NCBI GenBank assembly: GCA_000091205.1
Contig: AP006485.2
DNA: 64,000 bases
Reading direction: 5' to 3' (one strand)
From: Cyanidioschyzon merolae
Lineage: Eukaryota
In this document: one piece after another, positions 1,223-38,856 of the stretch
Position numbering within the stretch: position 1 is the stretch's first letter
Layout of the letters: the number at the start of each line of letters is the position of its first letter
The notes under the pieces: generated by a model
Told to the model about the DNA's origin: nothing
The model's input: the letters and a program-made list of their open reading frames with translations, nothing else
Databases searched by the model: none
Program-made: the position numbers and the translations under genes

Positions 1223-3742
1223 TCGCGACACACGATAAAGCGCGTTGTGGATACGTTGTTGACCTCGGGTGTGTTCGAATCGTTAGGATCTCACACATGC
1301 GCAGGGCGTGATCTAAAGTCCATCGATTTCATTAGCGAATACATATTCATTTGAAAAATCCGATCCAAGTCGACGCATGTTCATCAAACGCGAGGTACCA
1401 GCATCCCTGCACGGTGACTACATTCCATCCATATTAGAATGACATGGAGCTAGTCCACTGATCCAATTCGAGCGAACGAGCCAGAGTTTGGGTCTCTCCC
1501 AACTGTGAAGAATACCAGCCAGCCATGACTGGCTTGTAATGAGACTGCTTCCTTTTCCTGTCTCTGATCTCCGGATTTTGAATACGGAGGTCCCTTTTTA
1601 CCCCTATATCCGTCGTCAGCTGTCGAGGATTGCTGCGTGCAGCGCTCAAGTTCCGACTTTGCTGCTTCCGACTCTTCGCAATCTATTTCATGCGTTGACG
1701 ACAGTTTGGATCCACGCTTCGTTTGCCATGTTCATCCTCTTTGCGTACAGCTTCAATGCGCCAGTCCGTGCATCGAAAATCGGCTGCGATCAGGTATGCC
1801 CATAAGTCCATGAGACCACCTTCGAATGCCGCTCTGTGGTGCATGAGCGCTTTCTTCATCGCTCGGGCGATACCCTCGACGGGCACAGAAGCTTATGCTC
1901 GATTCCTGGGTATGTTTTTGCAACTGGTGCCGGTCCGTAAGATCATCGGTTACAGCTGGGCGATCCCGAAGCCGAGTACGCTGTCTGCGACACACGCAAG
2001 TGCACGCTGTTGCATTTGGTAGAGGACTCGTTGAAAGTGATATTTTCCGTGACGAAACAAGTACAAGAAGCAAAATCCAACCTGGAGAACACGTCGAAAA
2101 ACTTCCACACGACAACGCTCTCTTTATGCGACCCGATGACGCACGCTTCGATGGATGTGATCGCTGTGCTTTCCAAGCGGAGCGCAGCGAATCCTCCTGG
2201 TCCCCGTGACGTAACAAATTCCATCGACAAAGCGTCGAAGGAGCCATTCCGAGAACGCGACCGAGAATCCTAAAAGCACATATGAATCTGAAACCTGATA
2301 TGAACGTTTTCAGAATATGGCGGCTGAACATGCAAAACAAGTATCGATAAAAAAACCGATACCCTGGAACAGACCGACCAGTGCATATTTCCATTTGAAT
2401 CGTACAAGGGTGCAGGCTCGACAACGTCAAAGCGGGATCGATCAGAACACTGGAGCGTCGGGAACTACAGTTGAGAGCGCGATGATGCTGGTCGATAGCC
2501 GCTGGGACCTCGAGGTGTCTGCACAGGCGTAGAGGTCTCTTCCGTAGCCGCTGGAAGCACGCGCGTTTCACTGGGCAGTGCGGATGCATCCGCCCTACCG
2601 AGTGCAGAAAAAAGCCATAGGCAACAAGCACGTCTCTTTCCAAAGCAGCGACGCAGTTGCATATTCCGCTAGGCAGGGTGCCTGTTCCGTTCCAGCGAAT
2701 CAGTGGCTGTAGAGCAGCTGCATGGACTCTGGGCTCATAGGCAGCGGTCGTTCGATACCACCAATGCTCGATTGTCGTGCCGCTCGCCTCCGGTGCGTAG
2801 CGGGACAACAACGACAACGACGACCATAGCAACTGCAATGACGGTATGGTATAGAATAAACCGTCTGCTCTCGCTGGAGCAGGGCATCGTCGACATCGCG
2901 AAGCTCGCCTGACAGAGGAGTGCCCCCGAAGCGGAACGCGTCTGCGTCATGCATTCCTCGTGCAGAGGCTACCACCCTGGAGGCAGTTTCCGCATATCGC
3001 GGGCTCTAGCAGCGAGCCCGCCTTCGAAGCAAGTTCGATACGAACGCATATCGTCCGAGTCGAAGGGCCCAATTTAGTTGAAGACTTCTGCTTGCGGTTC
3101 GCGAGAGGAAAGCGAATACACCATGTGACGATGCATGCGTCGCTGATACGATGGATTCCACGCTGCCGTCTCGAAGCGTTGCGTCAAAAACGCTTGAGAA
3201 GCCTCTAGACACAATCACACATGAAGCCGCTGACTGGTACGTTTTCATCGGCCGTTCGCGCTGCTCCACAGACAATCCGGCATGTCCTCAACGGTCTCGT
3301 TTGCGAGCTGTGGTACAGCCTCGCCTGCAACCAGCGCACGCTTAGGACGGTACCCTGATGCCTTTTTCTCGAATACCATGATGCTGGATACGGTATCAAG
3401 CTGCAGACCGGTATCTGGTGGAGTCGCCTTCAAGTCCGAGGCCGACGCGACGAAGTGTCCCTCTGGGGGTATCCCGTGCAACGCTGGCATCGCCACAAGC
3501 GACCTGAACGAGCTTCGCTGACGCAGGGAACTTTCGTCGCTTGTAAACCGGGAATCGATGCAGTCTCGTGGCGTGCGTCGCCTTTGGTCTTTCGTTTACG
3601 AGAGATGAGCACGCGCTAACGCATTGTGCGCGCGTTATCTTCAGCATGACACTCGACAGCGAGATCGTCTTGCGTATGCATATGCTCCGCGTTTCTCGAT
3701 ACAAGCTGGGCGCAGTAGACGAGCCCCCGCCGAATGGCCTCA

Positions 3743-8322: not shown

Positions 8323-8888
8323 GTCTCTGTTCGAAAGACGTTTCCACTTGCGGTACGTTCTTCTCGGCATTTGAGGAGGTACCGATGCACGGTACAACGT
8401 TGACGCTTTCTAAAGTTTCCATTTGAAAATATTTGGACATTTGATGCATCTTTCGCGCTATTCGAAGCGGTGTGAATGCGGCGAGCGCATGAACACGCCT
8501 GCTCAGATCCACGCACTGGTACTGGTACACTGGTACACTTTCCTGCGCCGATGTGAGCGCATGTTGCAGCTGTAGACAGCCGTCGCTTTCTACGCAACCA
8601 TTCTGGGCATGGGAGGTATGGCGTGGACAGCTGCGTGCAACCGTTGTCGTTGCGTGAATGTACAGGCAGCGTCGCACGGGCGTCATTACCACGGCATGAG
8701 GTTCTCCGAGCGTCCATTTGGAGGCAGCGTTGCCGTGAGATGCTCGCAACGCTATTTCGGAGCTTATCAGTCTAACGATGGTTAGCATCCACGATAGGCG
8801 CGATAGCTCAAGAAGGTCGCTCGATAGAGTATGAGGATCATGCATGGGGTAATCTCTGGCGGGTGCTCGTTGGACCTACTGCCATGTC

Positions 8889-10253
8889 GGATTCAAAGCG
8901 AACGCTGAACAGCTCGTTCCGCTCCTGCTTTGTGATTCTTTTCTGAACGTTTTTATTTGACGCCAACGCTAGCCATTCGAAAAGCATAAACAGGTGTTCG
9001 TGGACTCGTGTATAGTTTTGGGATTCCTGTGAGCGTGCCTCCATCGACGCTTTGCAGATGGGATGCGTTCTCCTCATCGGCATCAGGATGACGCTCGATT
9101 CTGTCCAATATGCTTACCTACATGCATCCCCGCTACTCCTTTCCGTAAACGTACAAGAATCAACAAGTTCGCTCTTCGAGGTCTCCAGCTTACCGTGTTC
9201 ACGGCAACGCGTAGGTACGGCAACTCACGTCGCTGGAGACGCTGGAAAGAGAGCACAACGTCGTCCCTGACCGACTTGCTCGCTAGCTTGTAGTGAGCGC
9301 CCACTGCGCTCGTCACCTCAAAGGTAACCCATGTCGTCCGAAAGCCGTACCCTACGCTCTTCGTTGCCACCGACGAAGAGACACTCGACGAGACCGGCCT
9401 GCTGCCTCTCACGGCATACGCGCACAGGCGCCCCGGGTATCCTCTGTTTGCACTGATAACGGTCTGCGACTCAGACTCGAGTCATCGCAGCAGTCGCTTC
9501 GCGTAGCGCGTACGTCACCGCGTCGGACAGCGTTGCGCGTTGACGGACCAGGATCAACCCCGGAGTGCTTCCCCAGCCTGGAGGCTCTCTCGCTCTCTCC
9601 GGTCCCTGCTTCACCACGATCGGTATCGCGTTCCGGAACTCGTCTATAGAATGGAACAGCGAGCGCTTGTGTATGCAGCAGATAGCCTATTCACCGACAC
9701 GATCGCTCAGAAGGAGCTCGTGATCCCACGGTACTGCACCGAGTGCGGACACCAGGCATGGCAACCCGGAGAGCCCGCTGTACCTTCAAGCGGCGTCTAC
9801 GGACTGACGGAGCAAGCGATCATACGTCACTGCAGACAAGTACGCGGTAACGCATGCGCTGTGGCAGACGTACGTGTATGCGTATCGAACGAGAAGCGAT
9901 TGTGAGTGTATCGACGGGCGACCCGCGGTTGTATCCAAGGACGATCATGGAAATGGGAAGCGCAGTCTAGATGCCAAGCTCCGCCTGTGCATAAAATGCG
10001 TCGATGAGCGTCGGAAATCGCGGAATCGGGACTTGAGCACGACCATCAGAGTGTTGCAACGATCGACACTGGAAGAAGAGGGACCCTGCGGATGTATGTG
10101 GTGACAGTCGGATATCTGATCGAGGAAAAGGAACCCGTCGCATACAAGACCCGCAAATGCTCGTCTTTACGCCAACTGAAACACAAATCCAATATTCATC
10201 CTGAATCTCCGAGTCCTGCAAGTTGACCATTCCACTTTATACGCTGACACGAA
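8889..10253 (+). mobile_element. Copy 1 of a ~1.37-kb dispersed or direct repeat, ~99% identical to 16624..17988. It carries a frameshifted TnpB/Fanzor-like C-terminal remnant (… LVIPRY-CTECGH …) on the + strand. Putative decayed IS605/TnpB-only (Fanzor-like) element.
   Basis: The whole six-frame ORF series (8838-10230) is duplicated with an offset of exactly 7735 bp and only ~10 substitutions. ORF 9540..9905 encodes ALVYAADSLFTDTIAQKELVIPRYCTECGH, which fits the TnpB consensus 'YKAe..G..v.V.PrYTSQ.C..CGh'. The element is a series of + strand ORFs in shifting frames (9052-10104), as expected for a pseudogenised nuclease gene. The size is typical of tnpB-only IS elements. Confidence 0.45.
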
Positions 10254-10382
10254 CGCTAAACGCTCAAGTTCGCTGGAGCGCTACCCTGAGGGCAGCTCGC
10301 GCGCCGCCGATGGCACGAATCCCTCTGAACATGCCGTGGACCTGCTGGATACCGGTATCGTGAACGCTGACATTGTGAACCC

Positions 10383-16427: not shown

Positions 16428-16623
16428 AACCTTGCAGGTTGAAGTTGAACGAGGTACTTCTTCTGCAAAGCAAGTTTACCAGTGCAACGGCCCTTTTCGC
16501 AAGCCTTGCACGAGTAACCAGCAAGAAAAAGGCTGGCGCAAGCGTCCACTATGGAAACAAAGTGAATGCTAGCTGGTTATCAGCAATGGAGGTGCGGATG
16601 CTGTCTGCTCAGAACAGCGTACT

Positions 16624-17988
16624 GGACTCAAAGCGAACGCTGAACAGCTCGTTCCGCTCCTGCTTTGTGATTCTTTTCTGAACGTTTTTATTTGACGCCA
16701 ACGCTAGCCATTCGAAAAGCATAAACAGGTGTTCGTGGACTCGTGTATAGTTTTGGGATTCATGTGAGCGTGCCTCCATCGACGCTTTGCAGATGGGATG
16801 CGTTCTCCTCATCGGCATCAGGATGACGCTCGATGCTGTCCAATATGCTTACCTACATGCATCCCCGCTACTCCTTTCCGTAAACGTACAAGAATCAACA
16901 AGTTCGCTCTTCGAGGTCTCCAGCTTACCGTGTTCACGGCAACGCGTAGGTACGGCAACTCACGTCGCTGGAGACGCTGGAAAGAGAGCACAACGTCGTC
17001 CCTGACCGACTTGCTCGCTAGCTTGTAGTGAGCGCCCACTGCGCTCGTCACGTCAAAGGTAACCCATGTCGTCCGAAAGCCGTACCCTACGCTCTTCGTT
17101 GCCACCGACGAAGAGACACTCGACGAGACCGGCCTGCTGCCTCTCACGGCATACGCGCACAGGCGCCCCGGGTATCCTCTGTTTGCACTGATAACGGTCT
17201 GCGACTCAGACTCGAGTCATCGCAGCAGTCGCTTCGCGTAGCGCGTACGTCACCGCGTCGGACAGCGTTGCGCGTTGACGGACCAGGATCAACCCCGGAG
17301 TGCTTCCCCAGCCTGGAGGCTCTCTCGCTCTCTCCGGTCCCTGCTTCACCACGATCGATATCGCGTTCCGGAACTCGTCTATAGAATGGAACAGCGAGCG
17401 CTTGTGTATGCAGCAGACAGCCTATTCACCGACACGATCGCTCAGAGGGAGCTCGTGATCCCACGGTACTGCACCGAGTGCGGACACCAGGCATGGCAAC
17501 CCGGAGAGCCCGCTGTACCTTCAAGCGGCGTCTACGGACTGACGGAGCAAGCGATCACACGTCACTGCAGACAAGTACGCGGTAACGCATGCGCTGTGGC
17601 AGACGTACGTGTATGCGTATCGAACGAGAAGCGATTGTGAGTGTATCGACGGGCGACCCGCGGTTGTATCCAAGGACGATCATGGAAATGGGAAGCGCAG
17701 TCTAGATGCCAAGCTCCGCCTGTGCATAAAATGCGTCGATGAGCGTCGGAAATCGCGGAATCGGGACTTGAGCACGACCATCAGAGTGTTGCAACGATCG
17801 ACACTGGAAGAAGAGGGACCCTGCGGATGTATGTGGTGACAGTCGGATATCTGATCGAGGAAAAGGAACCCGTCGCATACAAGACCCGCAAATGCTCGTC
17901 TTTACGCCAGCTGAAACACAAATCCAATATTCATCCTGAATCTCCGAGTCCTGCAAGTCGACCATTCCACTTTATACGCTGACACGAG
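16624..17988 (+). mobile_element. Copy 2 of the ~1.37-kb TnpB/Fanzor-like repeat, in direct orientation relative to copy 1.
   Basis: Colinear with 8889..10253 at ~99% identity. The six-frame ORF set is duplicated, including ELVIPRYCTECGH in ORF 17275..17640. Confidence 0.45.
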
Positions 17989-18205
17989 CGTAGCAGCGTC
18001 GCAGCAAGCAGATACCTCGGGACGCTCTTTCCGCTCGTTCGGCATACGCGGCCTCCACAGACCTGTATCTCGAACAGACGCATCCGAGTGTCTGAACTCG
18101 GCTTTTCATTGCTCGTCGAAAGGAGACCGGGTCTGGAGCTTTCGTAACTGCGTTGCGTTTTTATTTGGGGTATTGTACAGATAACTGGAATAGAAGTTGT
18201 GAAGT

Positions 18206-24012: not shown

Positions 24013-24177
24013 ACCTTAGACTCGTACCAACCAGTTGCTGTCAGTTGGAGAACTCCACCGCTGAACCTCATATCCGAGAGCGGCACGAATCGCACGCTGC
24101 GCCCCGCTGAACTGGACGCGAAAACAGAGGTGCAGGAGGCGGCATCGTCCGATGACGCTGCCCGATGGCGATGCCAT

Positions 24178-24590
24178 GTCATCGAGCGTCATCATCGTCA
24201 TCGAGCAGCAGCAGAAGCATCATCATCGTCATCATCGTCATCGAGCAGCAGCAGAAGCATCATCATCATCATCATCGTCATCGAGCAGAAGCATCATCAT
24301 CATCATCGTCATCATCGAGCAGCAGCAGAAGCATCATCATCGTCGTCGTCATCATCGAGCAGCAGCAGAAGCATCGTAATCATCGTAATCATCATCATCA
24401 TCATCATCGAGCAGCAGCAGAAGCATCATCATCATCATCATCATCGAGCAGCAGCAGAAGCATCATCATCGTCGTCGTCATCATCGAGCAGCAGCAGAAG
24501 CATCATCATCATCATCATCATCGAGCAGCATCATCATCGTAATCATCGTCATCATCATCATCGAGCAGCAGCAGAAGCAGCGGTGCGATC
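24178..24590. repeat. Imperfect minisatellite of ~33-42-bp units, (CAT/CGT)n-CGAGCAGCAGCAGAAG, about 10 units.
   Basis: Units are readable directly in the sequence. All three + frames give His-, Ser- or Ile-rich homopolymer ORFs (24130..24717 and others), a typical repeat artefact. It lies in the intergenic region between the divergently transcribed DDX49 and GARS. Confidence 0.9.
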
Positions 24591-24883
24591 AGCGCAGCCG
24601 CCGGGACACAGTACCGGTCAACGCATGCGATACGTCGCCTTTCCTAGTACGCGACTCGTGAAGAGCGTTCCGTGTGTCTCTGTTCAGCAAAGCGGTGTGT
24701 GCGTTTGTGCTCGCTAGGCGTCCTGGTAGACCGTTATAGCTTTATTGAGCCAGTTGCTGACGTGGGCGGCATTAAGTGACAAACGGAGCATTCTGCCCTA
24801 GATCGCGTCCAGCGGCGACAAAGCAACGCACACGAGACGTTCCGGCTTACCTCCTGAGTCCATAAACAGCGCGTGGACTTGCG

Positions 24884-26830
24884 ATGCAGCGCCGCTTCGA
24901 TCGTAAGTCTTTTGATAGGGACGCTTTTGAGACGGTGCTGCGACGCCGGTTTTTTCTTGCGCCCGCGTTTGAAATCTATGGCGGTGTTGCGGGTTTGTTT
25001 GACTACGGGCCCCCGGGGTGCGCCATGAAGAACCATCTCATCCAGTTATGGCGGGATCATTTTGTTGTGGAGGAGGGCATGCTGGAGATCGACGGACCGA
25101 CGCTGACACCTGATCCGGTTTTGCGAGCCTCTGGTCACGTTGATCGTTTCCAGGACTACATGGTTCGCGATCTCGACACGGGCGCCTGTTACCGAGCTGA
25201 CCACCTGCTGCGGGAGACCCTGGAGAACCGCATAGCCGCGATGGATCGGAAGCGCACCGATGTACAGGAAGACAGGCTGCGATCAGCAATGGAGACCTGC
25301 TTGCAGAGGATAGACGAAATGAATCAGGAGCAAATCGCTGCTGCATACCAGCAGTTCGATATCCGTGCACCAGAGTCAGATGCACCACTTTCTGCTCCAT
25401 ATCCATTTAATCTCATGTTTCAAACACAGATAGGACCGACGGGAACGATACCAGCATATTTACGGCCAGAAACAGCCCAAGGCATCTTTGTGAACTTTCG
25501 TCGCCTCCTGGACTACAACAACGGACGCATGCCGTTCGCGTGTGCGCAGATCGGTCTCTCCTTCCGGAACGAGATATCTCCGCGAGCAGGTATTCTGCGC
25601 GTGCGAGAGTTCGCTCAGGCTGAAATCGAACATTTCGTTCATCCGGATCGGAAGGACCATCCAAAGTTCAACCTTATCGCTGACCTGGAGCTGATTCTGC
25701 TCCCACGGAAGGAGCAGCACGCCGCTCGCTCTCGAGAACAGATGACAACCGTGCTTCTTCGTGCGGCGGAAGCAGTTCGCCAAGGCATTGTCGACAACGA
25801 GACGCTGGCCTACTTCATCGCGCGAACGCAACAATATGCCCAAATGATTGGGATTCTGCCCAATCATATGCGTTTTCGACAACATCTGGAGAGTGAAATG
25901 GCCCACTATGCCCGGGATTGCTGGGATCTCGAAGTGGAGACCTCGTACGGCTGGGTGGAGTGCGTTGGCCTCGCGGATCGTGCCTGCTATGACCTGCAGG
26001 CGCATTCCGCGGCTTCCAAGGTGGATCTGGTCGCCTATGAAAAGTTCGACGAGCCACGTGACGAGACGTTCCTCCAAATCACACCGCTCAAACGGGTTAT
26101 TGGAACGAAGTTTCGCGGTGAAACACCGCAGGTTTTGGAAGCCATCGAGAAACTGGGCGAAACCGAGCGTGCACAGCTTCAGCAACAGCTCACTGACCAG
26201 GACCAAGTTCAGCTGGGACCCTACGTCATCACACGGGAAATGGTGACGATCGAACGGGTGAATCGCAAGATTCACGGCCGCAGTTACTGTCCCAGCGTCA
26301 TTGAGCCCTCGTTCGGCATCGGGCGACTGTTGTACTGTGTTCTGGAGCATGCGTTCTACAATCGAACCGGTGGCGATGAATTGCGCACCGTGTTAGCCTT
26401 GAAACCGGCAATTGCACCGGTGAAATCCGTCGTCCTGCCGTTGAGCAAAAATGAGGTATTCGAACCCGTGATACAGGCCGTCTTGCATGCGCTCGCAAAA
26501 TGCCGTCTGACGGTGCGCCTCGACGAAAGCAACGTGTCCATCGGGAGGCGATACGCACGCGCCGATGAAATCGGGGTGCCCTTCTGCGTCACCATCGATT
26601 TTGATTCGCTGGTGGATCACAGCGTCACGCTGCGTGAACGGGATTCCATGGAGCAGGTACGCGGCTCCGTTGGGGATGTGGTGCGCGTGCTTGTCGAGCT
26701 GGTCACTGGAGAGCGGAGCTGGACGGAGCTGGTCTCCACGGATCCGAGCCTGAAACCGTTCACCGGTCAACAGAGTACGAGTGCTGTCGAGGATGGCACG
26801 GTTTGCGAGAAACCTACGCAATCGGCTTGA
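24884..26830 (+). CDS. GARS: Glycyl-tRNA synthetase, eukaryotic/archaeal alpha2 type (cytosolic).
   Basis: RRFFLAPAFEIYGGVAGLFDYGPPGCAMKNHLIQLWRDHFVVEEGMLEIDGPTLTPDPVLRASGHVDRFQDYMVRD ... CYRADHLL is nearly colinear with human GARS1. Class-II motifs are present. Uninterrupted 648-aa ORF. Confidence 0.92.
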   Translation: MQRRFDRKSFDRDAFETVLRRRFFLAPAFEIYGGVAGLFDYGPPGCAMKNHLIQLWRDHFVVEEGMLEIDGPTLTPDPVLRASGHVDRFQDYMVRDLDTGACYRADHLLRETLENRIAAMDRKRTDVQEDRLRSAMETCLQRIDEMNQEQIAAAYQQFDIRAPESDAPLSAPYPFNLMFQTQIGPTGTIPAYLRPETAQGIFVNFRRLLDYNNGRMPFACAQIGLSFRNEISPRAGILRVREFAQAEIEHFVHPDRKDHPKFNLIADLELILLPRKEQHAARSREQMTTVLLRAAEAVRQGIVDNETLAYFIARTQQYAQMIGILPNHMRFRQHLESEMAHYARDCWDLEVETSYGWVECVGLADRACYDLQAHSAASKVDLVAYEKFDEPRDETFLQITPLKRVIGTKFRGETPQVLEAIEKLGETERAQLQQQLTDQDQVQLGPYVITREMVTIERVNRKIHGRSYCPSVIEPSFGIGRLLYCVLEHAFYNRTGGDELRTVLALKPAIAPVKSVVLPLSKNEVFEPVIQAVLHALAKCRLTVRLDESNVSIGRRYARADEIGVPFCVTIDFDSLVDHSVTLRERDSMEQVRGSVGDVVRVLVELVTGERSWTELVSTDPSLKPFTGQQSTSAVEDGTVCEKPTQSA

Positions 26831-28134
26831 GTCTTTCGCTTTCCGAGTGTGCTCTGGGCTAGCATCGAAGCGTCGCAGGAGCGAATCGTTGCTGCTGCGT
26901 AGGCGCCGACGCTCATCGCTCGGGAGGTCTGGGATGAGGCGCGCAACCAGGCAGCGATGCCCGGGGTAAGCGCACGGCCCGGAGGCGTGGCGGTCACGGC
27001 TTGCACGCCACTGGGTCAGCTGGCGGCTTCTGTGCGGAGCGTGCGCCTACCACAGGCCACGGTGAGCGCTCATGGAAGCTTTTACGGTGCCGAGGGGATA
27101 GCGAACGGGTCGGTGACCTTGAATCGGGTGCGCGTCCGTCGTTTGGATGACCATTTTTTTGAATCCTGTTAAAAGCAGCAGCGTAGATCGGAGTTTGACC
27201 TGCTTCCGTTCCATGCCATGCCAGAGAAAGAGGCCGCAACAAGCGCGAATGATGCGATTGCTAGGCGTCGGCAAGCACCGTACAGCCGAAAAGCACCAAA
27301 TATTGGTTCGGTCGGACGCTGCGGGTGTCTCGACGACGCATGTCAGGCGTTGCACGCGCGTTACACGTCCCTGCGGAAGCTCGCTTCACCAGCAGCTGCA
27401 TCCGCTGGAGGTGGCAGCCACTGCACCCAGGTTCGATTCACACGGCACGCTGTCCTGCTCTCGCTGTTCCTACCTTGCTATCTTTCTCCGCGCACGTTTT
27501 CTTAGATGCACGGGGTCGACGTTCGAAGTGCAGCAGTAACGGCGTATGCATTCATGCGAAGTTTGAGGATTCATATCGGTCTTGACGGGGTAGCGTCTTC
27601 CACGCTTGCGACTGGTATGCTTTCCGCCTCGGAAATCAAGATGATTGGCGACAACCTCAAGCGAGGGTTTGTAAAATACCCAATGTCATGATCGAACACA
27701 AGCGCACCAGCCTTCATGCTTCTGCATCCCGTACGTACATCTGGGTTGACGAGGGAAAACCTCGACCAGATCTCTTTACGATTCCACGCTCATGCAGAAC
27801 GTTCACTCGACACGTCAAGCCAGATAATCGAATCTGCGCGAAAGGCAAACGCTCCTCTCTGGGTCGCCAACGGCACAACGACATTCGACAGTGACACGAA
27901 GCCTTTCGGGGGATGCGCTGCCAACGGCTTCCGTCGCTTTTGTTTGCGTGGAATAGAGTCTTGGACTCAGGGCTTGATTCATCGCAACGATCGCTTCCAG
28001 TGCGCATTGCCTGACCGCTACACAGGAAAGGGGCAACTCGGATTGACGTTTGTCGATTTTCTCTCAAGCCTGGAATCTCATTTCGGTACTTTTTTCATCA
28101 CGGGTAATATCGTGTCCCACAAAACCCCTCTCCG

Positions 28135-28658
28135 ATGGAAGAGCGAGCTCTTGCGCATGCAGCAGACAGCGTGCTCGCTGAGCGGATCACCAGAAAGATG
28201 CTCGTGATCGTTGGGCTCGGTACCGGGCGTCGAAACCGACGCGGACATCGAAGAGAGCCCTCTATACCCGTCAAGGGCATATGCCAAGCGATATACGAAG
28301 CACAAAGCGTCCATGGATGACCCTCGCAGAAGGAGTAGGTTTCGTTACGATGCATACTCGCAAACACCTGACCACCTCCATGTGCCACTCTTACGAAGGG
28401 CGCACTGACCCTGTATACAAAGCAGATGAAAAGGCAAAAGAGGGGCGGATCACGACTTGCCTGCTAAGCATCAAACGGTACAATACTAGCCAGAAGCTGC
28501 GAAATAGGGACGTGAACGCTGCCGTCAACCTCGCCTGCTGGTTCAAACGGAGCTCGAGGTACATGTGCAACCGGTGTCTTGAAAACGGGAGACACGAGAG
28601 AGGAAACAAAACCTGCCCTAGACAAGCCCTGAATGGCTTGCATTGGCGGCCGAGATAA
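28135..28658 (+). pseudogene. Degenerate TnpB/Fanzor-like (IS605 OrfB) remnant that retains the RuvC-III motif. Frameshifted, with the zinc finger lost.
   Basis: ORF 28281..28658 encodes PVYKADEKAKEGRI ... YNTSQKLRNRDVNAAVNLA. The YKA ... TSQ and RDVNAA.N(I/L) motifs are TnpB hallmarks, and RDVNAAVNL is at nt 28506-28532. Upstream at 28135-28210 there is clear nucleotide similarity to 9651-9725 of the 1.37-kb repeat (MEERALAHAADSVLAERITRKMLVIV versus MEQRALVYAADSLFTDTIAQKELVI). Three frames are needed to read it, so it is a pseudogene. Confidence 0.45.
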
Positions 28659-30089
28659 CCAGCCCTAGTTGTGTTGGGTGAACACCCAAAATAGGTGCGT
28701 GTGCCTCGTCCATGACATGCCGACATGAGTGCAGCGACGTGCATGCGAGCGTCCGTTTCGCCACCTCCTGTCTGTGTCACGCACGAATCGCACCGCGTTC
28801 GTTCCTATCATGAACGACGTTCGATACCACATGTGTACAGCCTATTCATGAATGCTCTTCGACTGAGCGCAGCTCACTTGAACCTTGCAGCGTAGCGAGG
28901 TATACGCGTTAGACGAGGCGTTTCGGAACGAAACGAATCCGAGGCGTCGCGCTGCACGACACGTGCCGTCGTGCACGTGTCCTTGAATCGGAACCTCCCT
29001 CGTGCAGATATTCTCGATGGCGATCACAAGTTGTTGGTATGGAAAATCGCTTGACGAGAATGCTCTCCTTATTTTTTTTGCCAGAGACGCTGACCAGAAA
29101 TGGCGAGGCCTCCGACTACGACGATGCTGCGACAGTAAAACGCAGCCACTAGTCTCGGTTACTTGTTTTGTATTGCGAGACACCCGGGATTCGCGCGACA
29201 CCTGCACGGGTGTCGAGGCAAAGAACGTGTTTCGGTTAGAGGGTCGCAATTCTTGGCGCTCCGTCGACATGTTGTGGATCATCACAGGGCCCGGACAACG
29301 CTGATGCGCACCATGCACGCTGCCAGAACGCTACCCTCATCGCTCAGGGCGGCACGCGGTTTTGCCGTCGGGGTATGACGTATCCGCTGAGCGGTTCCTG
29401 CTGACGTAGTTCAGAGTGTTGCAAAGAGGACCCTCAATGTTACGGAAAATCCAGGTGCGCCCCAAGCCAAGCGGTAAGCTACCTGCTGTTGCCATGCCGG
29501 TCCCAAGAACCAGGTGTTTCATTCGATGACATGGGAGAACCCCATGGAAGCCTCGATGCAACCCAGGGTCTCGTTCGTGCGCGTCTACGATAAGCGATTC
29601 AGCTCGAGCGGTGGATAACAGGCCGCCTGGACGTATGGCAGACTGAGAACGACAAGGAGTTCCGCTCCTTTTTTTTGCTACGGGCGAAGCGCACACCATC
29701 CCTATCACGAACAGAGAAGTCGTTTTCCAGAGTCCCCCAGACGCCCCAGTGCTGTCACCAGCAGAGGAAGCGACCTCAGCGCATCAGTAGCTGATTGCGC
29801 ACGCCACCAGGCATAGCCCACAGCTCCGAAACGAGAAAGCGGTATGGCGAAATACTGGATTCTGGAAGCACTCGATCTTCATTTGATCATGGATAAATAG
29901 CGAGTCAAGTTAGCGTCTCCAATGAACACGAACAGTTCCAGTAACAACGAGAGAAATCTCAACGCGTCGGCAGATACTTGCATATGCCACCGAGTCGATT
30001 CGTCAAGTCTCCCTCACAGCACCGCCTAGAGACTCGCGCGGAAACAATGTTCCGCGTTCCGCGCATCCCGCCAGCCTATGCCTCTGGAC

Positions 30090-30475
30090 AGTAGCCAGCG
30101 TATCCGGCGGGTATCACTATACAAATTCCTAGTGACAAAATGCTAACAGTAGCCAGCGTATCCGGCAGTCGTTATCATACAATATCCTAATGACAAAATG
30201 CTAACAGTAGCCAGCGTATCCGGCAGGTACCACCATACAATATCCTAATGACAAAATGCTAACAGTAGCCAGCGTATCCGGCAGTCGTTATCATACAATA
30301 TCCTAATTACAAAATGCTAACAGTAGCCAGCGTATCCCGCAGTCGTTATCATACAGTATCCTCATGACAAAATGCTAACAGTAGCCAGCGTATCCCGCAG
30401 TCGTTATCATACAGTATCCTCATGACAAAATGCTAACAGTAGCCAGCGTATCCGGCAGGTACCACCATACCAATG
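30090..30475. repeat. 58-bp tandem repeat, ~6.6 units, immediately 5' of the peroxiredoxin start codon.
   Basis: The unit 'agtagccagcgtatccggcagtcgttatcatacaatatcctaatgacaaaatgctaac' recurs at 30090, 30148, 30206, 30264, 30322, 30380 and 30438, an exact 58-bp period, with minor variants (ggtaccaccat or gtcgttatcat). Confidence 0.9.
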
Positions 30476-30600
30476 AGGACGCTGCCCATTCGCACTGCGA
30501 TGACGCAGCGCCTCGATACAGGGCAGCGCTGCATCTCCAGCTTTTGGGCGCTTCGCTGTTGCTCTGCGCTTCGCGAAACGCCTTCGTACCCACGGAGCAA

Positions 30601-31269
30601 ATGTCGCGTGCTCTCTTAATCAACGATGTTGCACCCGACTTTGAGGCAGAAACTCAGCTTGGGCCGATAAAGTTCAGCGAATACGCCAAAGATAGCTGGG
30701 TGATCCTCTTCTCACACCCGCGCGACTTTACACCGGTGTGCACGACGGAGCTGGCGCGCGCTGCGCAGCTCCAGGAAGAGTTTGCGCGTCGCGGTGTGAA
30801 AATGCTAGCGCTTAGCTGTGATGATGTCGAGTCTCACAACTCCTGGGTGCAAGATGTTGGTGCATATGGGAAAACTGAGGTTAAGTACCCGATCATTGCA
30901 GACCCAGAGCGCAAAATCGCCAAACTCTACAACATGTTACCGGCAGCGGATCCGGGTCGCGACAACATGCCGTTTACCGTTCGTTCGGTGTTCATCATTG
31001 ACAGTTCGAGGCGCATACGGGCTATGGTGACGTATCCAGCGCCGATCGGCCGCAACTTTGATGAGCTTTTGCGCGTCGTGGACGCACTGCAGACCAGCGA
31101 TCGTTTGCACTGTGCGACGCCCGTGGACTGGAAGCCCGGGTCTAGGGTTATAGTTCCATCAAACGTTCCCGATGCGCTGGTGCAGAAGCACTTTGCCGAT
31201 GGACTTGAAGTTGTAGATCTGCCATCGAAAAAGTCGTACCTGCGGTACGGCTCTACGAGTCCATCGTAA
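30601..31269 (+). CDS. PRDX6: 1-Cys peroxiredoxin (Prx6 type).
   Basis: MSRALLINDVAPDFEAETQLGPIKFSEYAKDSWVILFSHPRDFTPVCTTELARAAQL ... PVDWKPGSRVIV ... KKSYLRYGS is colinear with human PRDX6 and has the peroxidatic Cys in the PVCTTE motif. The ORF track extends upstream through the tandem repeat, but the Met at 30601 matches homologue N-termini. Confidence 0.9.
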   Translation: MSRALLINDVAPDFEAETQLGPIKFSEYAKDSWVILFSHPRDFTPVCTTELARAAQLQEEFARRGVKMLALSCDDVESHNSWVQDVGAYGKTEVKYPIIADPERKIAKLYNMLPAADPGRDNMPFTVRSVFIIDSSRRIRAMVTYPAPIGRNFDELLRVVDALQTSDRLHCATPVDWKPGSRVIVPSNVPDALVQKHFADGLEVVDLPSKKSYLRYGSTSPS

Positions 31270-33515: not shown

Positions 33516-36500
33516 ATGCGGACATATGTGAGGCGTTCGTTTGTGGCGGTGCAGCTTGCGCTTGGCTACTTTCTGACGACGCTGATGGTCGTGATCAACC
33601 CAACCCGGGTCTACATGGCGTGCTGGGCGCCAATTCAATTCGCACTATTGGCCGGTGTTGTCAGTGAGTTTGAATATGTGGGATCACTGCAGCAGGCGGC
33701 AAGCGCGGCTATCGTTGGTCCCTCGTTCGGGGCGACGCTGGCACTCATTATTCAGCTTGCTGCAGGGCACTTGCTTTGGCTTCGCATCATACTCAATGTG
33801 GTGTTTATGGCAATACTGGTGGCGCCTCGGCTCTGTCCTCCCGCCGTAGGCTCTGTGAGCCTTTCACTGATTGCGTTTGGCGTTGTGGAAAACTATTTGC
33901 AGCTGAGCCTGGACTCAGGACCCGGACACCACGCCTTCATGTACTCGCACTACATCCTTTCAACCTGCTTTGCAGCCTTTGTGGGATTTTTTGTTGCTTT
34001 GCTTGTGTTTCCTGTGTCCGTACGTAGCCTTTTTCATGACAGCGTCGAAAACGTGCTACGCGAGAGTGCTAAGCGCCTGAGTCGTTTGGCGTCGCTTCTC
34101 CTGGCTGATGTGTTCCAGGCGACTCAGATCGAGAATGAGTTGCAGGAGCGGCAGAAGGAACAGATCGCCAACACCTTCGATGGATACCATTCAGCCTCGC
34201 CACGAACCTCAGTGGAAATAATAATGGAGCAGCGCTTGTCTTCGTATGCTCGTATGGAGACGCTGGGCCGCAGTGAGTCGTCATTCAGTGCGGAGGCGAC
34301 GATTTTTGGCTTCGCGGAAGAGTCCGCGTTACTACAAGGAGGCTCGCTCTATCTCCATGGGAGCCTAGTGGCGTTGCAGCGATTGTTACCGCTAGGCGCC
34401 AACGAGCTCACGTACCCGGCACTCTTTTATCATGCGCCGATAACGGACTGGTCGAAAATCATCTACAAGTCACGAGACCTGGTCGCACGTATCGGCGGAC
34501 TCGAGAGCGTTATTCTGCATCGCCGTGGTACCGAGTACCGCGCGGTAGCGATGCACAGACTGTATCGAAGTGCCCTTGCAGATGTAACCAGATTATGGGC
34601 AAGGCTTGCGAGTGCATGCAATTTGCTCGGCTTGCTCGTTCGAGAGAAGGAGGTGCGTTGGTTCCACTGGCCGGAAAACTCACCCCATGCCCTTACGATA
34701 TTTCGCAACGAGAAGATTCGAAAGTACCTCGATGAGGTCATTGACGAGAAAGAAATCGAGGCGCTCTGGCGGCGCGTCACAGAGAGTGGCCTCAGTGGCT
34801 ATCAGGAGTTTTGGCGTGATATGGCGATTGCAACACACGTCGAGGACTTTAACCGCGAAGTCGATGTGACCAAGCTCGTCCGCGTCTCGGCGATTGTGCC
34901 CGTCGAGTCGGTACGTGTTGCCTGGTTCAGCACCGTGCTAGTGCATCGGGTTCTCGACTCTGTCTACGAGTTGCGCGAATCCGTGTATCAGTTATTGGAA
35001 CGACAGGCGCCGATGAGCCGGCAATCGTCGCCCTGGTGGCACTGGGCGCTGAACCGTCTCCGAGATGCCAGTTGGAATGTGTTTATGGCGGTCACGTTCT
35101 CGACTCGTGCGATGTATAGTTTCTGGAGCGACGTCCTCCGTAATGTGCTGCAGTACCGCGCTGCGGACTATCGACGGTTCTGGAAAAATAATCAATGGCA
35201 ACTCATATTTCTCATCAAGTACTATATTATCAGCACTGCTGCGATCATTACTGTGGTTTGTATTCCGGCGTCGTCGAATATTCGACAACAATGGGAGCCG
35301 ATTCTCGGGTACCTGTCGGTGGTGGTGTCCGCTCGACCGACAACGGAATCGGCTGTGAGTGTGGCGCTCTCCCGAGCAGCCGGGGGCATCGTTGGTGCGG
35401 CTCTCGGCTACCTGGTGCTGGTGAAACCCGCCCTAGCTGTGAACGCTTTTTTTGTGGATGGTATTACGGTTGCGATTGTTTTCGTCATGTTTTACTGCAA
35501 CCTTGTCGATTCCATGAAATGGCTACAGTACACAGCTGGCATTGCTATTTTCATCTTCACCGTGGTCTGCATGTGCCAGTACAGTGCGCCGGTCGATCAC
35601 GCTGTCTGGCAAGCCGCTGTAGGCGCAATGGTATGCACTGCGATAGGGGTTGGCGTGATCATCCTGTTCACAACGGCCCTGTCACCTCGTATGGCGAGTC
35701 GTGAATCACGCCGCACCCTTCTCCGCGGATTTGCTGCCAGCGTCGACGGTGCGATTGCATGCTGGGAGGAGAACCTCCGTCGCCACAACTGCGACGAGTT
35801 TCTGGATCGCTTTCATCAGGCGCTCCATAATATCGAGGCAGCGCCAGCCAATCCGGCCGTTGAAACGACCACCGAAGAACGAGACAAGGAGGCGGAGGAG
35901 GTGCAAAACGTGCGTGTACACGCACACCCGTGGCAAGAGACCATGGCTATCAACAAGCACATTGAGGCGCTGGCGACAAGTGTAGCGATATTGAGCAACG
36001 CCCTGTCACCGAGTTTCGGCGGCGTGAATCAGTTCGCCTTGTGGAAAAGAGGCTTCTTTCGACCACCACAGTTTATCGTTGACGGGAACGTTGCGCTTTG
36101 TGTTGTGCTGCTACGACTGGAGGTGCTCAATAGTATAGTGAACCGTCCACCCATTTACGGTGTGCGCTTCTCTGGGGCGATGTATCGCCTTTTCCTGCTG
36201 GCACTCGAGCCTGAATTCAGTGCAATTTTCCGCTCGTTGATTGAGCTCACAGACGCCCTGCGAGGATGCCTCGAATCTCGCGGTATTCTGGAGGATCTCT
36301 TCGGATCCGCCGAAGCGCTGCATAGTGATGCAATGCGCCGTTTCGAGAACCGGAAATGGCTTTTGCAGCTGTGCCTTTCGCGAAAACGAGCCGCTCAAAT
36401 GCAATCCAAGCTGAACGCTTACGAAGGGAATGGCGTCGAAGTTGCCGACGGAGGTCAGGGCTTCTGCATCATGGAGCCCAGTGTGGGTTTGGCACTGCTC

Positions 36501-37262
36501 AACTTTCGTCGACGACGCGCAGAGCTCTGGTTCCGAATGCGGCGTCGGGCGCTCCAGATTGTGCACTACATTCGTGATCGTTATCCCGAGCTCGAAAGTC
36601 GACTGGCAGCTCATATTGCAAAAATGGCGCTAGACGAGAGTAGCAGCGCATCGTTCGCTGAGATCTACGAACAACTCCTCGAAAACGAGGACTTGGACCG
36701 GGGTCCGCAGCTTGCCGCTGTGTTTCCGCTCCTTCGCCGCCTCATGCAGTTACGGAATCCGCACTATCACCGCCACGTGCGCACTCGGGAACCGAGGCTG
36801 TCGATTGCGAGGGAGGCACAATCCGCGAGTGAAGAGCTTTTACGGAGCTCGCTACAAGAGGATGACCGCCGCAGCACCTCGCCGCGAGGGAGCACGTCGC
36901 CATCCAGAGCGTCTTTCGCCCATGCAAGTGAATCCGTGGCAGCGGAGGAGGCACGCAGCTGCGCACCGGACGCAGAATTCGCGCAAACAGTGGACCATGA
37001 ACTGGAGAAAGAGTTGATCATTCTCAACTTTCGGCAGGTCGTCGAGACAAAACTGCTGCGCAGTGCGGATGCGTCCGCCAGCACTGCGACGCTGCCGATT
37101 GCGGGCGTCCCCATCGATGACTTTGTGCACTTCTCGACCTTCATGTACGGGCTGCGGGAACTTTTTGGGAGCATTGATTACGCTGCTCGAGCCATTGGGT
37201 CCTGGACCAGACCGCATCATGCAGAAAAGCTGTCGTTGAAACGTGGAAGGCCTTTTTATTGA
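33516..37262 (+). CDS. Large (1248-aa) integral membrane protein with two separated TM clusters, resembling FUSC/ArAE (aromatic-acid exporter, ALMT-like) architecture.
   Basis: One hydrophobic cluster is at aa ~10-170 and a second at aa ~560-720. Each is followed by a long soluble charged region. Uninterrupted ORF. The family call is based on architecture only. Confidence 0.3.
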   Translation: MRTYVRRSFVAVQLALGYFLTTLMVVINPTRVYMACWAPIQFALLAGVVSEFEYVGSLQQAASAAIVGPSFGATLALIIQLAAGHLLWLRIILNVVFMAILVAPRLCPPAVGSVSLSLIAFGVVENYLQLSLDSGPGHHAFMYSHYILSTCFAAFVGFFVALLVFPVSVRSLFHDSVENVLRESAKRLSRLASLLLADVFQATQIENELQERQKEQIANTFDGYHSASPRTSVEIIMEQRLSSYARMETLGRSESSFSAEATIFGFAEESALLQGGSLYLHGSLVALQRLLPLGANELTYPALFYHAPITDWSKIIYKSRDLVARIGGLESVILHRRGTEYRAVAMHRLYRSALADVTRLWARLASACNLLGLLVREKEVRWFHWPENSPHALTIFRNEKIRKYLDEVIDEKEIEALWRRVTESGLSGYQEFWRDMAIATHVEDFNREVDVTKLVRVSAIVPVESVRVAWFSTVLVHRVLDSVYELRESVYQLLERQAPMSRQSSPWWHWALNRLRDASWNVFMAVTFSTRAMYSFWSDVLRNVLQYRAADYRRFWKNNQWQLIFLIKYYIISTAAIITVVCIPASSNIRQQWEPILGYLSVVVSARPTTESAVSVALSRAAGGIVGAALGYLVLVKPALAVNAFFVDGITVAIVFVMFYCNLVDSMKWLQYTAGIAIFIFTVVCMCQYSAPVDHAVWQAAVGAMVCTAIGVGVIILFTTALSPRMASRESRRTLLRGFAASVDGAIACWEENLRRHNCDEFLDRFHQALHNIEAAPANPAVETTTEERDKEAEEVQNVRVHAHPWQETMAINKHIEALATSVAILSNALSPSFGGVNQFALWKRGFFRPPQFIVDGNVALCVVLLRLEVLNSIVNRPPIYGVRFSGAMYRLFLLALEPEFSAIFRSLIELTDALRGCLESRGILEDLFGSAEALHSDAMRRFENRKWLLQLCLSRKRAAQMQSKLNAYEGNGVEVADGGQGFCIMEPSVGLALLNFRRRRAELWFRMRRRALQIVHYIRDRYPELESRLAAHIAKMALDESSSASFAEIYEQLLENEDLDRGPQLAAVFPLLRRLMQLRNPHYHRHVRTREPRLSIAREAQSASEELLRSSLQEDDRRSTSPRGSTSPSRASFAHASESVAAEEARSCAPDAEFAQTVDHELEKELIILNFRQVVETKLLRSADASASTATLPIAGVPIDDFVHFSTFMYGLRELFGSIDYAARAIGSWTRPHHAEKLSLKRGRPFY

Positions 37263-38830
37263 GCGCATCGCGGCTGCGCATTTTGACGTGTCATCGTGGA
37301 TGAGACGTAGAAAGAGGCGGCGAGGGAGTCGCTTCTATTCCTTGCGCTATTCTCTGGTACAGAGAACTGCTTACTTGAACCTAAAAAGTACACGAAGATG
37401 ATGACGGAAGCATCGGTTTTGCAAAATATGGCTTGTACGCAGAGCAGTGCGTGCTCGAACACCCGTACCAGCACGCCGTTGTTGTTTCTAGTTGTTTTTC
37501 CCACTGGTATTCAACAGAACGAATATGGCCCATGGGTTGGGGAAACATCGAGGTAGGGGCTTTACCCTGTCCCTGATTTGTCATGAGCGAAACGCCAAGT
37601 TGGCCATTGTACGTTCAGCAAGTGGATGAACCGTCCTACACCTCGTCCTTGTGCTGAATATCATGCACTTGATCCAGAGCTTGTCGGGATTCATCTTCAA
37701 CATTGCCTTGTCGTGAATCCATGCAGCTCCACACGTTCTGGGGCAAAGCTCACAAAAAGACAGGGAATCTGTGGAATCTTCGCACCGCTCATATAAATCG
37801 TGATGGAGCGACGCGAATGGACAACAAGAAAAAAACGCCCCTACGGGAGAACGTCGAGTGTTTAACAGCATACTCCCGGTTGCGCACTCGAACGTAAACG
37901 CTCATTCCAGGATGCAAAGATATTCCTCTCAATAGATCAGACCGTATTCGGGAGTATTGGTCCACCCGGCTGTGGCTACTCAAACAGAGCTCATTTGCTG
38001 TTCGTAGATACTTGACAAGCTGGCATGCCGACAACACAAGCCCTAGCAGCAATACGATCGTGCCGTCGCCGGGATACCGCCAGGTGGACAGGGTAGGTTC
38101 GTACGGTATCCTTGAGAGAAACAAGTTGTGACTTCTCCTTCCCCCAAATTCTCTCGCATGCTGGTTGACTACGTCGCTTGCCATGAGGCAAGGGCGGTCC
38201 AGGAGTGTGCGGCTGAGACTGGCGGGATGCAAATCTTCGTGCGAAACTAGGCTCCCTGGTTCAGTCCAGTCGAAGGCGTCTGCTCAGTAGTCAGCCATGA
38301 AATATAGGCTCACGAATCTATATACGAATCGTGCTCGATCTTTACCGACGCTGGACTGCTCTGTCGCACCAGTCCTCGTGTGCCGTTGATTCCGAAAAGG
38401 CACACCTGGTTCATAGACACGCTCACAATCGTAGAGATAATGAGAATGCAGTAAAGGAATAGTGCATCCATAAATGCAGAGGGCGAGCTTCAGTCACAAG
38501 TAGTAACCAGTGCATAGGAGTCCCGCGGAGAAATCGAGAATGGAGTATAGTGACGACATATTTGCCAGCCCACGCTGGAAAGGTAAAGGCAGAGATGGCG
38601 CTTGTGGCGGTGAGAAGCTCCAAAGCATTTGAACAACGCGACGAGGAGCAATGGGGCACCTCATCCCAAGCCGCTGTTTTTCCGGGCGAGAGTGGATCAT
38701 CAGTTTCAGAATCAGTACAGATCGACGGCATACGCTTCTGCGTGCTTTTTGTGAAACCCAGACCTGCTTCGAGCAGCGACACTCATTTTCAAACATTCGC
38801 GCTAGATCAAGAGAAAGACTTGATGGTGTC

Positions 38831-38856
38831 TGTGTCTGTGTGTGTGTGTGTGTGTC
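38831..38856. repeat. (TG)n dinucleotide microsatellite.
   Basis: tgtgtctgtgtgtgtgtgtgtgtgtc. Confidence 0.85.

Follow-up and report, generated by a model that had tools for sequence, protein, structure and literature searches.

Locus 3, at 27424..28731 on the plus strand of the window (the whole stretch of Cyanidioschyzon merolae DNA that was analysed, 64,000 nucleotides), belongs to a family of non-autonomous DNA transposons of about 1.36 kb in C. merolae. The element unit is a composite transposon, non-autonomous and apparently internally deleted, that ends in terminal inverted repeats and is flanked by TA. It is not a bare Fanzor relic, because its upstream half is, on its profile matches, the relic of an IS630/Tc1-mariner DDE_3 transposase. 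The preliminary description had read the locus as a Fanzor-like relic; this holds for the 3′ part, in which the RD of RuvC-III is kept, and it overlooked the transposase. Locus 3 is a dead copy that encodes neither a nuclease nor a transposase, because the RD..NAA..N motif of RuvC-III alone survives. The locus is very probably a decayed full-length copy of a non-autonomous family derived by internal deletion from a composite of a mariner element and a Fanzor1 gene.

The C. merolae genome is among the most streamlined and repeat-poor of eukaryotes. The window is part of chromosome 3 of strain 10D and encodes GlyRS and CMC041C, both exact matches to 10D proteins. Four copies of the family are present in the window. 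Two of these form the 1.37-kb repeat, both on the plus strand: rep1 at 8882..10256, followed by TA at 10257-10258, and rep2 at 16624..17990, followed by TA at 17991-17992. Their cores, 8889-10252 and 16624-17987, are 99.3% identical over 1364 bp. Locus 3 matches positions 2-1342 of the family HMM at 27435-28728 (nhmmer), its ends having been refined by terminal alignments with 13 paralogs. The fourth copy, at 1430..2606 on the minus strand, matches HMM positions 95-1341 (nhmmer E 2e-274). It was missed in the preliminary description, and its RuvC-III Asp has changed to Asn (QSRNLSAARSN). The expectation of a multi-copy family is borne out beyond the window by at least 13 clusters of full-length paralogs, the source of which is Cyanidioschyzon-like metagenome contigs and not the reference genome.

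Locus 3 had been linked to the 1.37-kb repeat through 75 bp, and an alignment with both repeat copies had been proposed. The pairing of 28136-28210 with 9651-9725 gives 8 matches in 75 as written, but the similarity is real after a shift of one base, with which 28136 pairs with 9652. The link itself is correct, and the homology covers the whole element. Smith-Waterman alignment of 27806-28275 with 9309-9790 gives 64% identity over 461 columns and a score of 73, compared with 14.2 +/- 1.05 for shuffled sequences. In nhmmer, 27433-28750 aligns end to end with 16623-18009 (E 6e-49).

Terminal inverted repeats and TA flanks belong to the family. The repeats measure about 26-28 bp and show conservation across the family; in locus 3 they are weak. 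Reverse-complementing the 3′ end gives the consensus terminus YACCCGTGTCAG..AAATGGAACG. A copy-by-copy search for terminal repeats was convincing in two copies only, L014 with about 38 bp and also L044, where they are clear; a terminal alignment of the family was used. On the plus strand of locus 3 the 5′ remnant, CACCCAGGTTCGATTCACACGGCACG, lies at 27424..27449, where conservation among the paralogs begins, and the terminal alignment of paralogs places the 3′ remnant, ...CCGACATGAGTG, at 28704..28731. TA adjoins the 5′ end in five of 13 copies and the 3′ end in four of 13, against a background of 3.1%, and three copies have TA at both termini. Locus 3 is flanked by TG on one side and CA on the other, and each differs from TA by a single transition.

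The region from 27506 to about 28128 is assigned, by profile comparison of the family consensus, to an IS630/Tc1-mariner DDE_3 transposase. The consensus of the 13 paralogs matches Pfam DDE_3 (PF13358) with 38.5 bits (cutoff 28.6) and NCBIfam IS630 with 60 bits (E 2e-16, profile positions 20-237 of 299). The match stops at position 237, which keeps the latter score below the equivalog cutoff of 100. Pfam HTH_33 and HTH_Tnp_Tc3_2 match the consensus weakly. In locus 3, the N-terminal helix-turn-helix part (27506..27691, plus strand) keeps its ATG and a 61-aa ORF that aligns with MYSLDIRSAAIRAYGF... of the consensus, and the DDE_3 catalytic core, mapped on the 13-paralog consensus, lies at 27716..28128 on the same strand. 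The transposase ORF of locus 3 alone matches neither DDE_3 nor any other Pfam family. Its first Asp has become Asn (ANGTTTF, 27866-27886) and its second Gly (ITGNIVS, 28097-28117). The consensus keeps both (DET and MDN) and is without the region of the third catalytic residue, and an intact DD(E/D) triad is found in neither locus 3 nor the consensus. Two other readings were rejected because the region is the transposase relic: RuvC-I at WVDEGKPRPDLFTI (near 27736), and a match of LRFHAHAERS to CMe-1.

The junction between the transposase-derived and the Fanzor1-derived parts lies at approximately 28129..28134 (plus strand), and Fanzor1 homology begins at (Y)RMEQRALA. The counterpart of this motif in the longer relative L054/P0078 is YRLGQRALARAAD, upstream of which the two are unrelated. 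The exact breakpoint is uncertain because the DDE_3 alignment on the consensus overruns the proposed junction by about 25 codons, through an out-of-frame YSP. In locus 3 the ORF at 27716-28207 (163 aa) continues beyond the junction in the transposase frame.

Derivation of the 3′ part of locus 3 from a TnpB/Fanzor1 gene is supported by profile matches and by residual motifs. When 2150 six-frame ORFs were searched with a Fanzor1 C-terminal profile (hmmsearch), two segments on the plus strand were matched colinearly. Part A (28135..28297, frame 1, MEERALAHAADSVLAERITRKMLVIVGLGTGRRNRRGHRREPSIPVKGICQAIYE) is the counterpart of the VVAYGAG..KG..P.P segment in Fanzor1 and covers HMM positions 133-184 (E 1.4e-3). 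Part B (28298..28545, frame 0) follows a frameshift near 28297, lies inside ORF 28281-28658 and covers positions 183-257 (E 1.7e-4). Only two other Fanzor1 loci of the window match the profile better. A profile search of the stitched translation, suggested in the preliminary description, gave 29.4 bits with frames picked by hand, compared with at most 8.6 bits in 2000 shuffles. Comparison of locus 3 with Fanzor1 by hhalign gave a probability of 90% (E 1.5e-6), which fell to 78% once the fourth copy had joined the query. Locus 3 is 44% identical over 86 aa to L054 (BLASTP, E 3e-8), which keeps RuvC-I (GLDPGRVN), the Glu, the zinc finger and the RD.

The majority consensus of the 13 paralogs, 1355 bp long, contains one ORF of 213 codons, ...VIVGYGTG...DIREHLTTAKCHRC...CMKC...RNRDLNAAINI. 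This was the consensus used for scoring, that of three copies being too ambiguous. The ORF matches Pfam PF07282 with 32.7 bits (cutoff 26.3) and the Fanzor1 profile with 87 bits (E 1e-25). Locus 3 alone fails PF07282 (E 7.6), and its ORFs and stitched translation have no significant match in Pfam, NCBIfam or PDB in single-sequence searches. P0027, a bona fide Fanzor1 of the CMe-1 type, also fails Pfam (E 0.23), therefore the Pfam result for locus 3 says little. The consensus ORF and the L054 protein, each alone, have no PDB match by phmmer, and a search for homologous proteins with stitched locus 3 returned the ORF itself only.

ORF 28281..28658 (125 aa) is present as first described, with its RuvC-III-like motif, and contains PVYKADEKAKEGRITTCLLSIKRYNTSQKLRNRDVNAAVNLA. 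The motif had been placed at 28506-28532. It is real, but RNRDVNAAVNL spans 28500-28532; the RuvC-III Asp is kept and the RD..NAA..N pattern is matched. The NTSQ that had been read as the TS motif of TnpB aligns with DNSR in the consensus, just past the degenerate second CxxC. The counterpart of the TS motif is instead the TTS within HLTTSMC (28368-28388), where TTSM occupies 28374-28385. The Glu before the TS motif (DEFxTS in Fanzor1), which we take to be the relocated catalytic Glu, is present in the consensus (REHLTT) and is Lys in locus 3 (RKHLTTS); in RKHLTTSMCHSY, at 28359-28394, this change is accompanied by that of the first CxxC to CxxY. The zinc finger had been described as missing, but its segment is present with three of its four cysteines substituted (CHSY at 28383-28394 and SIKR at 28467-28478). 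The consensus has CHRC ... CMKC, and rep1 keeps CIKC. Judged by these alignments, the C4 zinc finger was ancestrally present in the family and has been lost in locus 3. A RuvC-I aspartate of the DPG type is absent from both locus 3 and the consensus, in which homology begins at HMM position 128 of 285.

The Fanzor1 profile directly matches solved Fanzor1 structures (8GKH, E 1e-24) and TnpB (E 0.012); for locus 3 the homology to solved nucleases comes from profile-profile comparison. The region from RuvC-II to RuvC-III of SpuFz1 (8GKH), the Parasitella and Guillardia Fanzor1 proteins and ISDra2 TnpB is homologous to locus 3. Compared with these proteins, locus 3 is without RuvC-I, REC and WED and has lost the Glu and the zinc ligands. 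It is predicted from these losses that locus 3 cannot be a nuclease.

Fanzor1 genes are found in Tc/mariner elements with TA target-site duplications (PUl-1, PUl-2 and PGv-1), of which PUl-4 is a Fanzor-only relative (Bao and Jurka 2013, PMC3627910). TnpB and Fanzor1 share the motif D-X(125,275)-[TS]-[TS]-X-X-[C4 zinc finger]-X(5,50)-RD (PMC3627910). PUl-1 and PGv-1 carry, on one strand, a mariner/IS630-type DDE transposase and downstream of it Fanzor1, and are bounded by terminal inverted repeats and TA duplications. The locus 3 family shares with the PUl-1 type its gene order, the DDE_3/IS630 transposase, the TS-C4-RD tail, the presence of terminal repeats and an enrichment of TA at the flanks; the likeness is drawn from the published architecture and not from sequence. 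The family is smaller, at about 1.36 kb compared with 3.4-3.8 kb for published elements of the PUl-1 type. Unlike these it is without the C-terminus of the transposase and about three quarters of Fanzor1, every copy is pseudogenised, and the host is a red alga. Deletion derivatives of Tc1/mariner elements in general have the same kept termini, coding capacity destroyed by internal deletion and multi-copy amplification, but the interior of locus 3 fuses two genes, transposase and Fanzor1.

We infer that the ancestor was a Tc1/mariner (IS630-like) composite in which a captured Fanzor1 gene lay downstream of a DDE transposase gene. In the founder copy an internal deletion would have fused the last 170 or so codons of Fanzor1 to the transposase, at a point about 10 codons past the second catalytic Asp of the latter. 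The deletion would have removed the third catalytic residue of the transposase and the N-terminal three quarters, approximately, of Fanzor1 with RuvC-I, and kept the RuvC-II region, the TS motif, the C4 zinc finger and RuvC-III. The derivative would have retained both terminal inverted repeats, and was presumably mobilised by full-length transposase acting in trans, by cut-and-paste into TA sites. The inserted copies would then have decayed neutrally. No full-length progenitor with transposase and complete Fanzor1 was recovered, and a single deletion is therefore deduced from the shared junction and the analogy with PUl-1.

The chimera may alternatively have been formed by capture of a Fanzor1 fragment in a non-autonomous mariner-type element, or by nested insertion and rearrangement, and then amplified. 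The missing progenitor is compatible with such an origin, as is L054, the closest relative that keeps RuvC-I, which has no recognisable transposase directly upstream (three-frame reading by eye). However, the order of transposase, Fanzor1 and 3′ terminal repeat on one strand is that of the PUl-1 and PGv-1 composites, and all 13 paralogs align through the junction, pointing to one founding event. Non-autonomous Tc1/mariner elements also usually arise by internal deletion. We consider fusion by capture or rearrangement unlikely, and prefer internal deletion of a composite.

Family copies decay neutrally. Differences from the consensus are distributed flatly across codon positions in both the Fanzor part (p=0.14) and the transposase part (p=0.88), and in-frame stops occur in 13 of 13 paralogs. 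Intact members had been put forward as candidate active nucleases, but none was found among the 13 paralogs on metagenome contigs or in the protein searches. With the family consensus as query, a word-indexed search over 5.8 billion proteins gave only fragments of 124-361 aa. The locus ORF was compared exhaustively with 1.84 billion representative proteins in HMMER, and the only matches were the ORF itself and one spurious protein. P0070, an ARM-repeat ROCO kinase, was rejected as a homologue, the match being an artefact that sums many weak repeat matches.

The region that encodes the guide (omega) RNAs of TnpB and Fanzor comprises the end of the gene and the downstream terminus. Every non-autonomous copy retains this 3′ region of Fanzor1, and a putative omega-RNA-like output is therefore conceivable. 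Such transcripts could serve in trans a Fanzor1 nuclease encoded elsewhere, or a full-length mariner-Fanzor1 progenitor of this lineage could survive in Cyanidiales as an active RNA-guided nuclease; we regard this as very unlikely. In the 64-kb window Rfam gave nothing at gathering thresholds.

It is also very unlikely that an exapted small protein is expressed from the 125-aa ORF at 28281-28658, or more generally from the family's truncated Fanzor tails. In favour of such a protein are the open frame, an identical 113-aa product (P0026) called on related metagenome contigs, and the ORFs of 124-361 aa that several paralogs retain. The identity of P0026 is attributable to near-identical strains and not to constraint. 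The first codons of the ORF lie outside the ancestral frame and its Glu and zinc-finger cysteines are lost, and the paralogs combine substitutions without codon-position bias with stops in every copy.

That RDVNAAVNL is a chance motif in a locus unrelated to TnpB/Fanzor, the outcome named in the preliminary description as refuting its reading, would agree with the null single-sequence results in Pfam, NCBIfam and PDB. It would also agree with the exhaustive phmmer search, in which an ARM-repeat protein was the sole match besides the ORF itself. It is refuted, however, by the colinear profile matches in two frames, the hhalign result and the similarity of locus 3 to L054, and most strongly by the consensus of 13 copies, with a PF07282 match above the cutoff and 87 bits on the Fanzor1 profile.

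Fanzor1 in the red alga C. merolae has already been published, CMe-1A being the only one listed for this species and present in about 150 copies in its genome (PMC3627910). One copy, at 51273-54404, lies inside the window and is 80% identical to the CMe-1A consensus (3169 bp), and locus 3 could accordingly be a strongly diverged member of the same family. This identity is refuted at the level of the DNA family and is extremely improbable; the homology is at the level of the Fanzor1 superfamily only. When compared with the CMe-1A consensus by blastn and tblastx, neither locus 3 nor the repeat had a significant match, and tblastn with CMe-1 gave a match of 10 residues (E 5.5). The ORF of the family consensus is 24% identical to CMe-1 in amino acids, in a common C-terminal region. 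As read off the sequences, CMe-1 is without the C4 zinc finger of the family consensus; it also has no transposase (DDE_3) part, terminal inverted repeats or defined target-site duplication.

Both the mariner-borne Fanzor1 type and a Fanzor1 of C. merolae were thus known (PMC3627910), and the lineage described here is distinct from CMe-1A. Neither a new mechanism nor a candidate for an active nuclease comes with it. C. merolae holds, beside CMe-1A, a second Fanzor1 lineage that is mariner-associated and of which only neutrally decaying copies, apparently deletion derivatives, are left. This is one more data point for the capture of Fanzor1 by Tc1/mariner elements, and it improves the repeat annotation of a model alga. 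The two lineages share a genome and a superfamily, and both are old and mostly degenerate; the locus 3 family has no long intact ORF, whereas CMe-1 retains such ORFs, for instance the 752-aa P0027.

Locus 3 (27424-28731, plus strand, flanked by TG and CA) is an ordinary transposon relic, and the preliminary description was correct, if incomplete, in identifying one here. ORF 28281-28658 and its peptide were found as described there, as was the 1.37-kb repeat (8889-10252 against 16624-17987, 99.3% identity). Locus 3 belongs to the family of this repeat, as had been proposed; nhmmer matches 27433-28750 to the whole repeat (E 6e-49), and a local alignment pairs 27806-28275 with 9309-9790 across 461 columns at 64% identity, for a score of 73, whereas shuffled sequence scores 14.2 +/- 1.05. 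The 75-bp alignment quoted originally is homologous, being part of a far larger match, and its register was one base off. A fourth copy was found with nhmmer at about 1430-2606 on the minus strand; its RuvC-III Asp is replaced by Asn, and a mechanical 361-aa ORF (1753-2838, minus strand) overlaps it.

The suggestion of a multi-member family is borne out: when JGI metagenome contigs were scanned with a degenerate pattern, 53 loci were found on Cyanidioschyzon-like contigs. Nearly all match the 1.36-kb unit end to end, and they fall into 13 distinct clusters of full-length paralogs, with some partial copies besides. The paralogs have a mean pairwise identity of 56%, and each is 62-77% identical to their majority consensus (1355 bp). 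The two repeats in the window (8882-10256 and 16624-17990) are 99.3% identical to each other, against that 56% average, yet at the outer edge of the 5' terminal repeat one reads CCATGTCGGATTC and the other GCGTACTGGACTC, a pattern that suggests gene conversion between two insertions that are both old and lie 7.7 kb apart, and not recent transposition.

Single-sequence searches with locus 3 gave no significant match, and Pfam also fails on a genuine 752-aa CMe-1-type Fanzor1 (P0027). A Fanzor1 profile was made by combining CMe-1-like proteins and green-algal Fanzor1s, each represented by its C-terminal half, and was run on the complete set of 2150 six-frame ORFs from the window. After a CMe-1A copy and a CMe-1-like relic, its best matches are the neighbouring ORFs 28108-28317 (E 1.4e-3, HMM positions 133-184) and 28182-28655 (E 1.7e-4, HMM positions 183-257), which lie in different frames and match the profile colinearly. 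The stitched translation reaches 29.4 bits, and none of 2000 shuffles exceeds 8.6 bits. With hhalign, locus 3 and the repeat match the Fanzor1 alignment at 90% probability (E 1.5e-6); this alignment in turn matches TnpB as well as Fanzor1 proteins of known structure (8GKH, E 1e-24). These results uphold the Fanzor origin first proposed for the locus.

The majority consensus is decisive. In one frame it restores a 213-codon ORF (...YRMEQRALAYAADSVLAEGIAQKKPVIVGYGTGRGNGGGHRGEPSVPVKGMYRAMKQAF...VVDIREHLTTAKCHRCEGR...RLCMKCVDNSRKQRNRDLNAAINIL...), which passes the Pfam cutoff for PF07282 (Cas12f1-like TNB; 32.7 bits, cutoff 26.3) and scores 87 bits against the Fanzor1 profile (E 1e-25). The 5' 60%, in a different frame, passes that for DDE_3 (38.5 bits, cutoff 28.6), has weak Pfam helix-turn-helix matches, and matches the NCBIfam IS630 transposase over profile positions 20-237 of 299 (E 2e-16). 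The family is non-autonomous and most probably derives, by internal deletion, from a composite mariner/IS630 and Fanzor1 transposon. PUl-1 and PGv-1 have such a composite architecture (Bao and Jurka, PMC3627910), which the proposed progenitor shares.

Searches with the consensus brought up relatives, among them P0078/L054 and P0073, which carry GLDPGRVN (RuvC-I), ...YRLGQRALARAAD...VIIGYGTGRGNGGGHKGEPSVPVKAMYRAL..., WEHYTTQKCHRC, CEHC and RNRDFNAAINIL. They fix the predicted start of Fanzor-derived sequence at 'YRMEQRALA', about 10 codons past the second Asp of the transposase. Locus 3 and L054 are 44% identical over 86 aa (E 3e-8). The L054 gene (6031-7150 of JGI 3300031217, contig Ga0307940_1001143; also P0078 and P0073/L060) is a short Fanzor1-like gene on a eukaryotic metagenome contig that also bears Skp1 and peptidase M16 genes. 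It is intact for RuvC-I (GLDPGRVN), the Glu, both CxxC pairs and RNRDFNAAINIL, has one frameshift, and seems to be without the long N-terminal region. Among better-preserved relatives of the lineage it is the closest, and it scores 130 bits against the Fanzor1 HMM.

Paralog conservation is bounded by inverted termini, each about 26-28 bp long; one terminus reads YACCCGTGTCAG..AAATGGAACG and the opposite one is its reverse complement. In locus 3 remnants of these lie at 27424-27449 and 28704-28731. TA directly adjoins the 5' terminus in 5/13 copies and the 3' terminus in 4/13 (TA makes up 3.1% of background dinucleotides), which agrees with Tc1/mariner TA target-site duplication.

In locus 3 the transposase ATG is kept (27506), while both catalytic Asp residues are lost, the first to Asn (ANGTTTF, 27866-27886) and the second to Gly (ITGNIVS, 28097-28117). 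Beyond the junction (about 28129-28134) lie VIVGLGTG (28204-28227) and a frameshift (about 28297). The zinc finger had been reported missing; it is instead degraded, with CxxC changed to CxxY in RKHLTTSMCHSY (28359-28394), where the Glu is also changed to Lys, and SIKR (28467-28478) where the second CxxC was. 'NTSQ', read before as the TS motif, is a different segment: it aligns to 'DNSR' of the consensus, past the second CxxC. RNRDVNAAVNL (28500-28532) is kept.

The three codon positions depart from the consensus about equally often, both in the Fanzor part (27.1%, 25.2% and 28.3%, p=0.14) and in the transposase part (27.3%, 26.9% and 27.5%, p=0.88). Locus 3 is one old copy that has decayed neutrally. 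Intact members had been put forward as candidate active nucleases; none was found in an exhaustive HMMER search of the locus ORF against 1.84 billion representative proteins, or in a word-indexed search of the consensus against 5.8 billion proteins, in which the matches were fragments of 124-361 aa. In-frame stops are present in 13/13 copies and frameshifts in most.

Fanzor1 was already known in C. merolae from CMe-1A, a family of about 150 copies whose consensus is 3169 bp long and whose protein has 734 aa (Bao and Jurka, PMC3627910). The window was searched with the supplementary sequences of that paper. A nearly full-length, pseudogenised CMe-1A copy occupies minus-strand positions 51273-54404 (80.4% identity over 3152 of 3169 bp); it has multiple stops and frameshifts and overlaps a low-GC stretch at 52-54 kb. 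A separate, older CMe-1-like relic lies at about 38463-39431 on the plus strand (32% aa identity with residues 431-609 of CMe-1 at tblastn E 4e-13; HMM positions 449-582, E 6e-18), with no DNA-level kinship to CMe-1A or the 1.36-kb family. Neither of these is matched by locus 3 or by the 1.37-kb repeats at the DNA or tblastx level; locus 3 and the repeats belong to another family. Because the Fanzor tail of the consensus is only 24% identical to CMe-1, the locus 3 family is a second Fanzor1 lineage in C. merolae, unlisted for that alga in PMC3627910. Metagenome contigs carry intact ORFs for CMe-1-type Fanzor1, 662-752 aa in length (P0027, P0066-P0069); in a live scan all of them stay below the gathering threshold of every TnpB-related Pfam family, and many carry a precomputed PF26935 label.

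A 648-aa ORF (24884-26830) and a 1248-aa ORF (33516-37262) exactly match the glycine-tRNA ligase (GlyRS) and CYME_CMC041C of C. merolae 10D, therefore the window is from chromosome 3 of this red alga, with few introns and about 55% G+C. Locus 3 sits downstream of the GlyRS gene, in space without a long ORF. Immediately upstream of that gene, within a 195-aa ORF (24130-24717), is a degenerate triplet-based tandem array (24149-24619; units CATCATCGTC / GAGCAGCAGCAGAAG, super-period about 40 nt). Two further tandem repeats are present, one at 30030-30493 (58-bp unit, about 8 copies, 80-91% identity), which reaches into ORF 30430-31269 at its start, and one at 15083-15280 (66-bp unit, 3 copies, 94-97% identity).
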